From NCBI RefSeq assembly GCF_055900595.2, contig NZ_CM148325.1: a stretch of DNA of 64,000 bases; one strand, given 5' to 3'. Of the stretch, positions 4,058 to 10,036 are shown piece by piece. The notes below the pieces were generated by a model. That model saw only the letters and a list, made by a program, of their open reading frames with translations. It was not told where the DNA came from and ran no database searches. Position numbers and translations under genes: made by a program. Numbering within the stretch: position 1 is the stretch's first letter; each line of letters opens with the position of its first letter.

Positions 4058-4113
4058 AAACGGCGGCAGAGCAGTCACGGAGTAAAACTGATACCGCTAA
4101 ACGTCACCAGAAA
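4058..4113 (-). ncRNA. dicF: DicF small RNA (ftsZ-targeting sRNA of Qin-type prophages)
   Basis: Minus-strand sequence ttttctggtgacgtttagcggtatcagttttactccgtgactgctctgccgccg followed by a T-run; near-identical to DicF as I recall it. Confidence 0.8.
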
Positions 4114-5105: not shown

Positions 5106-5311
5106 GCTGACCTCATTTCCCCTTAACGCCGGGGTAGCGGAACAAAAACCTGCTGCATAGTTATTAAAGTTGAACCCTGCCGTCATGTTCTTACGCCTCG
5201 GGCTGGCTACTTAACCCCTGACCACTGCCTGGTAACTCGACGTATTGCCCTGCATTCTGTGGGGCGGGGTGAGGGAATGAATGAAGTTTAGAAAAATGAA
5301 CATTTAAGGTC

Positions 5312-5333
5312 AATGTTTTTTTATCAAAACATT
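5312..5333. promoter_or_regulatory. Candidate left operator: palindrome AATGTTTT-N6-AAAACATT
   Basis: Inverted repeat in the cI-distal intergenic region; same half-site recurs next to the cI start; an extra AACATT half-site lies at 5299-5304. Confidence 0.35.
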
Positions 5334-5397
5334 TTAAGCAGGCAGCTGTTACGCCATCACTACGATGGCATACAGTTAATCAAATAGATGAGGTTGG

Positions 5398-6036
5398 TTA
5401 AATATCTTTTTGAATTTTAAAGCATACTCCCAATATGCAAGATAGATCATCCAGCATAATTGAAGGGTAGCGAGGATTCGTGGGGACTAAAAGAATATCC
5501 GGCCCTTCTATCTCCAGTTTGCGAATGACAGGCGTTGTGGTCCCTTTGGGTAAGGCAAGGACAATATTTCCTGGTTGTACGATTCGATCGGGATCAACAA
5601 AAACTGTTGAACCATTTGGGATGGAAACTCCACCACCAGATGTCGACATACTGTCACTCTCTAGAACAACAGCAAAGGTATTGGCCGGGATTTCTCCGAC
5701 AAGCTGCACACAAGAGGTTATTGAGGAATTTTTCATATAATCACTCCAGCTTGCTGCCTGCTGAAGTGATAGTAGCGGAACCGTTTTTATCGGCGGTAAA
5801 GATAGATCAAGCGAATCACCTGTATTTAACTCTCCTCCATTAAGAAGCCAATTTTCGTTTACTTTCAATATCTTTGCCAGTGAGCTTATGTAACGCGAGG
5901 ACGGCGCTCCTCCACCGTTCATCCATTGACTTACGGAGCCTTTTGATGCGCCAGTGGCATTGACAAGGTCTTTGCCTTTCAAGTTTAGCGCATGCATACG
6001 TTGGGTTATGCGTTCAGATATTGTTTGCTTGTTCAT
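5398..6036 (-). CDS. CI-like prophage repressor (HTH plus S24 LexA-like autopeptidase domain)
   Basis: 212 aa; N-terminal HTH region (LKGKDLVNATGASKGSVSQWMNG), C-terminal S24-like region; divergent from the cro-like gene. Confidence 0.85.
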   Translation of the reverse strand: MNKQTISERITQRMHALNLKGKDLVNATGASKGSVSQWMNGGGAPSSRYISSLAKILKVNENWLLNGGELNTGDSLDLSLPPIKTVPLLSLQQAASWSDYMKNSSITSCVQLVGEIPANTFAVVLESDSMSTSGGGVSIPNGSTVFVDPDRIVQPGNIVLALPKGTTTPVIRKLEIEGPDILLVPTNPRYPSIMLDDLSCILGVCFKIQKDI

Positions 6037-6054
6037 GTTTTGATTTTAAAACAC
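6034..6054. promoter_or_regulatory. Candidate right operator: ATGTTTT-N6-AAAACA palindrome
   Basis: Same half-sites as 5312-5333, located between cI and cro. Confidence 0.3.
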
Positions 6055-6069
6055 AGATGGTTTTGTTTC

Positions 6070-6099
6070 TTGACTTTCTTTGGTTTTGATTATTAAACT
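6070..6099 (+). promoter_or_regulatory. Candidate PR promoter (-35 TTGACT, -10 TAAACT, 18-bp spacer)
   Basis: Sigma70-like hexamers upstream of the cro-like gene with GGAG RBS at 6118-6121. Confidence 0.4.
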
Positions 6100-6128
6100 T
6101 TTGGCGTTCAGTTTTATGGAGCGAATCA

Positions 6129-6370
6129 TGAAAAAATCAGAAGTATTAGGCTATTTTGGCGGAGTTGTTAAAACAGCCGCCGCTCTAGGAACGTCAAAAA
6201 CCACAGTCAGCATGTGGGGGGAAGACGTTCCGTGGAAATGGGCGTTGCTAATTCAGGCAGTCACTGCCGGGGCGCTCAAATATGAGTTACACATACCGAC
6301 GGTTGTCATTCCCGGTTCTGATCATAATCCGCCTTCTAACCAAGGGGGGATTCATGAAAATCAAGCATGA
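6129..6370 (+). CDS. Cro-like HTH regulator
   Basis: MKKSEVLGYFGGVVKTAAALGTSKTTVSMWGEDVPW... small HTH protein divergent from cI. Confidence 0.75.
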
Positions 6371-6779
6371 ACACATCCGCATGGCGATGAATGCCTGGGC
6401 ACGTCCTGATGGCGAAAAAGTTCCGGCAGCTGGAATAACCCAGGCTTATTTTGAGTTGGGTATGACGTTTCCTAAACTGTACGACGACAGCCATCCGGAA
6501 GCCCTGGCTCGCAATACCCAGAAAATTTTCCGCTGGATAGAGAAAGACACCCCTGATGCAGTTGAAAAAATTCAGGCGTTGTTACCAGCGATCGAAAAGG
6601 CAATGCCACCTTTGCTGGTGGCCAGAATGCGCAGCCACAGTTCAGCTTATTTTCGGGAGCTGGTGGAGACGCGGGAGCGACTGGTGAGAGACGCTGATGA
6701 TTTTGTCGCAGTGGCAATCGCCGGTTTCAATCAGATGAACCGTGGTGGCCCGGCTGGAAATGCTGTGGCAGTACATTGA
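6354..6779 (+). CDS. CII-like / YdaT-family regulatory protein
   Basis: 141 aa starting MKIKHEHIRMAMNAWARPDGEK with a G-rich RBS; overlaps the end of cro. Confidence 0.6.
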   Translation: MKIKHEHIRMAMNAWARPDGEKVPAAGITQAYFELGMTFPKLYDDSHPEALARNTQKIFRWIEKDTPDAVEKIQALLPAIEKAMPPLLVARMRSHSSAYFRELVETRERLVRDADDFVAVAIAGFNQMNRGGPAGNAVAVH

Positions 6780-9669: not shown

Positions 9670-9823
9670 TTTTATATTGGCGAGGTGACGTGAGTTAAGT
9701 AGAATTGCTGCGGGTGCTTGAGGCTATCTGCCTCAGGCATGAACACCAACGGCAGATAGAGAAAAGCCCCAGTTAACATTACGCGTCCTGCAAGACGCTT
9801 AACATTAATCTGAGGCCAATTTC

Positions 9824-10036
9824 ATGCTAGACACATGTAGGTTAGCCTCTTACGTGCCGGAAGGCAAGGAGAAGCAGGCTATGAAGCAGCAAAAGGCGAT
9901 GTTAATCGCCCTGATCGTCATCTGTTTAACCGTCATAGTGACGGCACTGGTAACGAGGAAAGACCTCTGCGAGGTACGAATCCGAACCGGCCAGACGGAG
10001 GTCGCTGTCTTCACAGCTTACGAACCTGAGGAGTAA
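9824..10036 (+). CDS. mok: mok-like reading frame overlapping hok
   Basis: 70-aa frame that starts upstream of and reads through hok, as in hok/sok loci. Confidence 0.5.
   Translation: MLDTCRLASYVPEGKEKQAMKQQKAMLIALIVICLTVIVTALVTRKDLCEVRIRTGQTEVAVFTAYEPEE
9881..10036 (+). CDS. hok: Hok/Gef-family type I toxin
   Basis: 51 aa MKQQKAMLIALIVICLTVIVTALVTRKDLCEVRIRTGQTEVAVFTAYEPEE, Hok family (HokD/RelF-like as I recall it). Confidence 0.85.
   Translation: MKQQKAMLIALIVICLTVIVTALVTRKDLCEVRIRTGQTEVAVFTAYEPEE

Follow-up and report, generated by a model that had tools for sequence, protein, structure and literature searches.

Among the characterised switches of prophages, the closest relatives of the locus described here are those of RacR/YdaS in the Rac prophage, PaaR2/YdaS in CP-933P, and DicA/DicC in Qin. 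RacR binds three inverted-repeat operators, O1 to O3, which were footprinted with DNase I in the repressor-cro region; O1 lies on the ydaS promoter and O3 over the racR ATG, and the main racR promoter, mapped by primer extension, gives a leaderless transcript (PMC9638921). In CP-933P of E. coli O157:H7, equally spaced 18-bp palindromes cover PRM and PR and recur at PL (PMC8630535), and YdaT, which is the CII equivalent of this prophage, has TTGATT-N6-AATCAA as its known site (PMC9986795). In Qin, DicA controls two promoters, the PR-like dicCp and the PL-like dicBp (PMC10448788).

The window (the whole stretch of DNA that was analysed, 64,000 nucleotides) contains a locus that resembles each of these switches in part. 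RacR/YdaS is an allelic cassette, inserted at the same two junctions (L011 in our comparison), and its architecture is the one that we propose for the window, with related RacR sites flanking the leftward promoter at equivalent positions of the cassette. The motifs differ, however, being (T/A)TAGGC-N3-GCCTA(T/A) for RacR and TGTTTT-N6-AAAACA in the window. In its annotation, RacR is also the smaller of the two proteins (about 158 aa in L011, against 212 aa) and, to our knowledge, has no S24 cleavage domain. Operator binding has been demonstrated for RacR and is predicted for the repressor of the window. With CP-933P, the locus shares a Cro of the YdaS/P22-Cro-like type and a YdaT as CII equivalent; in contrast, the CP-933P switch has the half-site consensus GTTTAGTAA, four repeats, and a PaaR2 that is co-transcribed with a toxin-antitoxin pair (PMC8630535). 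Qin DicA/DicC has the same leftward operon (ydfABC-dicF-dicB-ydfD), and K-12 DNA is 92.5% identical to positions 5166-5271 of the window, ending at the left junction of the cassette. DicA, however, is a protein of 135 aa without a cleavage domain and with different operators (PMC10448788), as compared with the 212-aa S24 repressor of the window.

The likeness to lambda and P22 lies in an HTH repressor with a LexA-like domain, a divergent cro, and a second set of operators at pL. Candidate sites in the right region are spaced by 23 bp, as compared with 23-24 bp in lambda, and their length of 18 bp is that of the P22 sites; lambda cI is leaderless, as that of the window is likely to be. On the other hand, the half-site of the window is unrelated to the operators of lambda and P22, its sites are nearer to the cI start than those of lambda, by about 11 bp, and the left region has only two sites, 29 bp apart, unlike OL1-3 of lambda. 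Finally, Ala-Ala is found in the window repressor at the position of the lambda cleavage site, which is Ala-Gly.

Genes of the Locus

The features discussed below are listed in Table 1. In Pfam, the cI-like repressor has an HTH_3 domain (residues 17-64) and a Peptidase_S24 domain (residues 113-197, E=8e-13). It matches the lambda repressor (3bdn) over its full length (E=5e-10), and its N-terminal domain aligns with those of the P22 C2 (E=2e-4) and 434 repressors, although its identity to lambda cI and P22 C2 is only about 24-29%. A search for publications on this repressor found none, and the public records carry generic names only. The recognition-helix segment SKGSVSQW is invariant in all of its variants. 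In the HMMER alignment, residues Ala94-Ala95 (QQAASW) stand opposite the lambda cleavage site Ala111-Gly112; QQAAS is conserved in all variants, and a candidate catalytic dyad (Ser in DSMS, Lys in IRKL) can be picked out by eye.

In public records, the repressor is annotated with differing starts, as a protein of 112, 174, 199 or 212 aa (for example, L001 6249-6587 and L002 5249-5848). The 212-aa reading frame is uninterrupted and takes in helix 1 of the HTH. An ATG without a Shine-Dalgarno sequence agrees with a leaderless mRNA and is probably what leads gene callers astray.

Table 1. Features of the candidate immunity region and its surroundings (positions in the window).
Feature	Position	Strand	Description
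DicF sRNA	4061-4112	-	Rfam RF00039, 64.8 bits; in the leftward operon under the left candidate operators
Immunity cassette	5272-6348		1,077 bp; OL sites, pL, cI, OR sites, pRM/pR, cro
Predicted pL (dicBp equivalent)	5285-5313	-	Consensus scan: -35 TTGACC 5313-5308, 17-nt spacer, -10 TAAACT 5290-5285
OL1-like degenerate site	5285-5302		Minus strand TGTTCATTTTTCTAAACT; overlaps predicted pL -10
OL2-like perfect palindrome	5312-5333 (core 5314-5331)		AATGTTTT-N6-AAAACATT; abuts predicted pL -35
cI-like repressor gene	5398-6036	-	212 aa, HTH_3 + Peptidase_S24
OR3-like perfect palindrome	6036-6053		TGTTTTGATTTTAAAACA; overlaps cI start codon and putative pRM -10
Putative pRM -10	6043-6048	-	TAAAAT, read from the sequence; ending 6 nt short of the A in the cI ATG
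OR2-like half-site	6059-6076		GGTTTTGTTTCTTGACTT; overlaps predicted pR -35; TGGTTTTG recurs 23 bp downstream
Predicted pR	6070-6099	+	Consensus scan: -35 TTGACT 6070-6075, 18-nt spacer, -10 TAAACT 6094-6099
OR1-like site	6082-6099		GGTTTTGATTATTAAACT; overlaps predicted pR -10; 14/16 bases as in the OR3 core
cro-like gene	6128-6370	+	80 aa, P22_Cro family, Pfam E=1e-15
ydaT	6354-6779	+	Product almost the same as the YdaT proteins of crystal structures 3c4r and 8bt1 (8bt1, CP-933P: E=1e-78)

The Cro-like protein matches the structure of P22 Cro (1rzs, E=3e-8), and its HTH is invariant in the variants. A ydfA-like DUF1391 gene lies to the left of the cassette, and annotated near-identical records continue leftward with ydfB, ydfC, dicB, ydfD, a RecE-like exonuclease gene, xis, and int. 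This gene content around the candidate sites identifies the locus as the immunity region of an E. coli lambdoid prophage that is Qin/Rac-like.

A stable hairpin is found just past the cI stop, at 5347-5375 on the minus strand (-16.5 kcal/mol as RNA, z = -2.6). Its stem, GCCATC/GATGGC, is conserved among relatives while its loop is variable, and no U tract comes after it; this hairpin may mark the end of the cI transcript.

Palindromes on Both Sides of the Repressor Gene

The original prediction, made from the sequence, was that two palindromes with a common half-site, TGTTTT/AAAACA, flank the cI-like gene and are candidates for OL and OR of a CI-type repressor. The left palindrome, AATGTTTT-TTTATC-AAAACATT, was found exactly where it had been placed. 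The right one, ATGTTTT-GATTTT-AAAACA, has the sequence that was given for it, but it spans 6035-6053, and its start at 6034 was thus off by one. The half-site is indeed common to both, in the form of a core TGTTTT-N6-AAAACA, and the 64-kb window contains exactly two perfect matches to this core, 722 bp apart, with the cI-like gene between them.

In dinucleotide shuffles of the whole window, the mean number of matches to TGTTTT-N6-AAAACA was 0.02, and two or more matches occurred in none of 100 shuffles. Because both intergenic regions are rich in AT (66-69%), an additional control was run with local dinucleotide shuffles, which were matched to the local AT content and for which the motif was not fixed beforehand. 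None of these 20,000 shuffles gave the two intergenic regions a perfect 6-Nx-6 palindrome in common, with identical half-site and spacer. Similarly, in an unbiased repeat search of positions 5150-6200, the palindrome sites ranked top among direct and inverted repeats, and this search found no other repeated motif in the two intergenic regions. A literature search for the exact site sequences found no match, and a paper on DicC in O157:H7 contained nothing on the locus. Degenerate matches, with at least 9 of the 12 motif positions, number 63 in the window, and degenerate sites alone are not statistically unusual.

Candidate Operators and Promoters

The right intergenic region, between cI and cro, measures 91 bp. 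Where a single OR site had been predicted, it contains three related sites at steps of 23 bp, so that the first and the third are 46 bp apart; the reading of this region as an operator thus held, and the number of sites did not. The OR3-like site overlaps the cI ATG (6036-6034, minus strand). The OR2-like site fits the motif in its left half only and is tentative, since its right half has no motif match. From the position of the pR hexamers, the second and third right sites would cover the -35 and the -10 of this promoter, respectively. Predicted pR lies upstream of cro, which has a Shine-Dalgarno sequence, GGAG, at 6119-6122.

On the opposite strand, no Shine-Dalgarno sequence precedes the cI ATG. 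The putative pRM -10 is invariant in the alignment of relatives, and no convincing -35 hexamer was found upstream of it. From the absence of a Shine-Dalgarno sequence and from a TAAAAT placed so close to the ATG, we infer that the cI transcript is likely to be leaderless, as in lambda.

In the left region, the predicted pL has a -10 identical to that of pR, and each of these two hexamers lies inside a candidate site. Transcription from pL would start at about 5278, and pL is the predicted promoter of the ydfA-ydfB-ydfC-dicF-dicB-ydfD-exonuclease operon. The two left sites are 29 bp apart, as compared with 23 bp in the right region. The OL1-like site is 79% complementary to the perfect left site, and its right half is simply the pL -10 hexamer. 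An extra half-site, AACATT, had been reported at 5299-5304. It is present there, but it does not stand alone: it is the outer end of the degenerate OL1-like site over the pL -10. In most relatives (IMG/VR loci), AACATT reads AACTTT, and it is therefore not conserved as a half-site.

Two other candidates in this region were rejected. The first was a palindrome, AACATT-N7-AATGTT, across the pL -35 (5299-5317), which was dismissed because it is not conserved. The second was a third OL site at 5407-5424, which falls inside the 3' coding end of cI and loses its register in most relatives, where it reads TGCTTTAAAATTCAACAA. The operator-like sequence at this place in the window, TTTTTGAATTTTAAAGCA, has 14 of 18 bases in common with the OR3 site; most relatives differ at one key position, and it is probably a coincidence of the coding sequence.

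Conservation in Relatives with the Same Repressor

A motif absent from phages with the same repressor would have spoken against the operator reading; in the alignments, it is kept in cI lineages of 83-89% identity. In OR of these lineages, variable columns make up 2 of 53 within the sites and 14 of 38 outside them (Fisher p=5e-5), and in OL, 4 of 36 and 33 of 90 (Fisher p=0.005), with the reservation that conservation of the sites is confounded by the promoter elements that overlap them. The variable columns outside the sites include the spacer between the first and second right sites as well as the cro leader. The same lineages show no variation in the recognition helices of cI and Cro.

The individual sites were followed in 69 IMG/VR loci. 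In the lineage of 98-100% identity, the OR1 to OR3 sites are identical, and in the two loci of 84% identity there is a single change in the OR sites, at 6041. This is an inner T-to-C change in the OR3-like site, which is otherwise kept in all lineages. The OR2-like site is invariant in the variants, and the OR1-like site has one variable outer position (6082) among the lineages. The OL2-like site is invariant in the 98-100% lineage and carries one substitution (TGTTTA) in the 84% lineage, and the IMG/VR relatives differ from one another in the outer half of the OL1-like site.

A search for distant repressors of the same specificity gave only 12 protein clusters at E<=1e-20, all of them at least 73% identical. 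One locus that seemed to be a more distant relative, at 71% identity (L079), was set aside as a degraded copy of the same cassette. Because the family is this narrow and L079 is degraded, the conservation footprint rests on about four independent lineages.

An Exchangeable Immunity Cassette

In thousands of E. coli genomes, matches to the 1.25-kb query are confined to its ends, and four of these genomes were retrieved for a comparison of cassettes. In these four genomes, homology runs up to 5271-5273 and resumes from 6349, and different repressor/cro pairs lie between. Of these, one is a second pair of the LexA family, two are HTH pairs, and one is RacR together with its partner. All five candidate sites of the window are located inside the 1,077-bp cassette, near its ends.

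Three of the four other cassettes have palindromes of their own. Matches at both ends were found for GGTAAC-N4-GTTACC in L008, for ATACC-N4-GGTAT in L009, and for TAGGC-N3-GCCTA in the RacR cassette; in L010, similar repeats can be seen by eye at both ends, and a scan with the guessed motif pattern gave no matches. Between cassettes, the motifs tried exclude one another. The left sites also occupy equivalent positions, starting at positions 14 and 43 of the cassette in the window, 18 and 43 in L009, and 20 and 45 in the RacR cassette. A generic comparison of left with right 16-mers across cassettes gave the highest values on the diagonal, with a tie for the window (13 versus at most 13), and points weakly in the same direction. 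The same ydaT and the same host are common to cassettes with differing palindromes, so that the reader of the motif must be encoded inside the cassette, as cI, Cro, or both. Taken together, the alignments show that the candidate operators are inherited with the repressor and cro as one block.

The two junctions, 5271/5272 and 6348/6349, are sharp and are common to at least four other types of repressor/cro cassette in E. coli. The left one comes after GGGGCGGGGTG, and the right one before GATTCATGAAAATCAAGC at the start of ydaT. In addition, an inverted repeat of the YdaT type, GGGATTCATGAAAATCAA, spans the end of cro and the ydaT start codon (6347-6364) and therefore straddles the right junction. 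This repeat has two mismatches in the window, one in L008 and L003, and none in L009 and L010.

A Proposed Switch and Its Alternatives

The locus has several of the features by which lambdoid CI/Cro operators are recognised. Its HTH and S24 repressor has a divergent cro across a short intergenic region, and related sites about two helical turns apart lie over divergent promoters, the promoters being predicted and the second site a half-site. The same motif is present at the leftward early promoter beyond cI, and the operators are inherited as an immunity-specific block. At the sequence level, the analysis establishes that the 18-bp sites form a non-random and conserved family that overlaps promoter-like hexamers on both sides of cI. 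We consider it highly probable that the palindromes are part of the left and right operators of a lambda-type switch, whose immunity type would be an uncharacterised one among the Qin/Rac-like lambdoid prophages of E. coli. The OL/OR reading of the original prediction is thus supported, although it was incomplete as to the number of OR sites, the nature of the extra half-site, and the placement of the better palindromes. These do not cover the core elements of the lytic promoters: the perfect palindromes are the right site nearest to cI, at an OR3-like position, and the left site farther from pL, just upstream of its -35, and the sites over the lytic -10 and -35 elements are the degenerate ones.

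In the proposed switch, dimers of the 212-aa HTH/S24 repressor would bind the 18-bp TGTTTT-N6-AAAACA sites, and the divergent P22-type Cro very probably recognises the same sites. Repressor at the OR1-like and OR2-like sites would block pR and hence turn off transcription of cro, ydaT and the replication genes. At the OR3-like site, occupation by Cro or by excess repressor would block the cI promoter, which is probably leaderless. On the left, repressor at the OL1-like and OL2-like sites would block pL, so that the ydfABC-dicF-dicB-exonuclease-xis-int operon would be off.

If perfect symmetry corresponds to the highest repressor affinity, the order of the sites differs from that in lambda. A variant of the proposed switch can be built on this point, in which the affinity order is inverted relative to lambda and the perfect pair serves either as the primary targets of Cro or as the feet of an OL-OR repressor loop that silences the leaderless cI; in addition, the Ala-Ala at the cleavage position might make SOS induction of the prophage poor or absent. 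We regard this variant as rather unlikely.

An alternative that we also consider unlikely assigns the perfect palindromes mainly or only to Cro and leaves the CI-type repressor with other sites, or with the degenerate ones only. It draws on the position of the perfect sites, one at the OR3-like place over the cI start, the other on the upstream side of the pL -35 (lambda Cro prefers OR3), and on the fact that cro belongs to the same cassette and has an equally conserved HTH. The two intergenic regions, however, hold no alternative repeated motif that the repressor could use, and in every characterised lambdoid switch CI and Cro use the same operators, including PaaR2/YdaS of CP-933P, whose footprints overlap (PMC8630535).

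It is very unlikely that the left palindrome acts instead as an RNA hairpin that serves to terminate the cI transcript or to mark its end for processing. An 8-bp stem could form here, 65 nt downstream of the cI stop, but nearly all of its pairs are A-U (-5.7 kcal/mol), and it is followed by GACCUUAAAUGU, without a U tract; an intrinsic terminator, with its G+C-rich stem and U tract, was therefore rejected, and positions 5312-5333 are absent from the output of the terminator scan. The much stronger hairpin of -16.5 kcal/mol lies between this palindrome and the cI stop. Moreover, a role in RNA leaves unexplained that the same sequence occurs again over the cI start and the pR -10.

Binding by a factor from outside the cassette, either YdaT or an AT-preferring nucleoid protein of the host, is more improbable still. 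The AT content of the regions and the occurrence of the YdaT half-site TTGATT inside two of the OR sites would agree with it; the TGTTTT sites, however, do not fit TTGATT-N6-AATCAA and were rejected as a YdaT operator, the YdaT-type repeat is located elsewhere, at the cro/ydaT junction, and the same ydaT and host accompany at least three other cassettes with differing palindromes. Lastly, the idea that runs of A/T in the AT-rich intergenic DNA are similar by chance, for which the frequency of degenerate matches might speak, can practically be discarded in view of both shuffle controls and of the conservation of the sites against a variable background.

Prevalence and Implications

Of 5,426 complete E. 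coli genomes, about 1,041 contain the same 1.25 kb at >=98% identity, as do three phage records, and O157:H7 strains are among the carriers of this immunity type. The motif and its repressor are uncharacterised, and the layout of the operators is itself ordinary, of the classical lambda-switch type, so that the general understanding of how such switches work is unchanged by these sites. Knowledge of the operators and of the exact cassette boundaries could be used to predict heteroimmunity among Qin/Rac-like prophages. It could also help to set right the start codon of cI, which is widely mis-called, inform reporter design, and add one more orthogonal repressor/operator pair to the toolbox.

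Two further elements were observed outside the cassette. The leader of the leftward operon, at about 5166-5271 (CACCCCGCCCCACAGAA... on the minus strand), gave no match to an Rfam family; it is 88-99% conserved across thousands of E. coli genomes and is common to different immunity cassettes, including that of K-12 Qin. To the right, at 9712-9886 on the plus strand, lies the sok antitoxin RNA (Rfam RF01794, 115.8 bits) that belongs to a hok/sok-type locus; a near-identical genome has an annotated hokD at the corresponding position.
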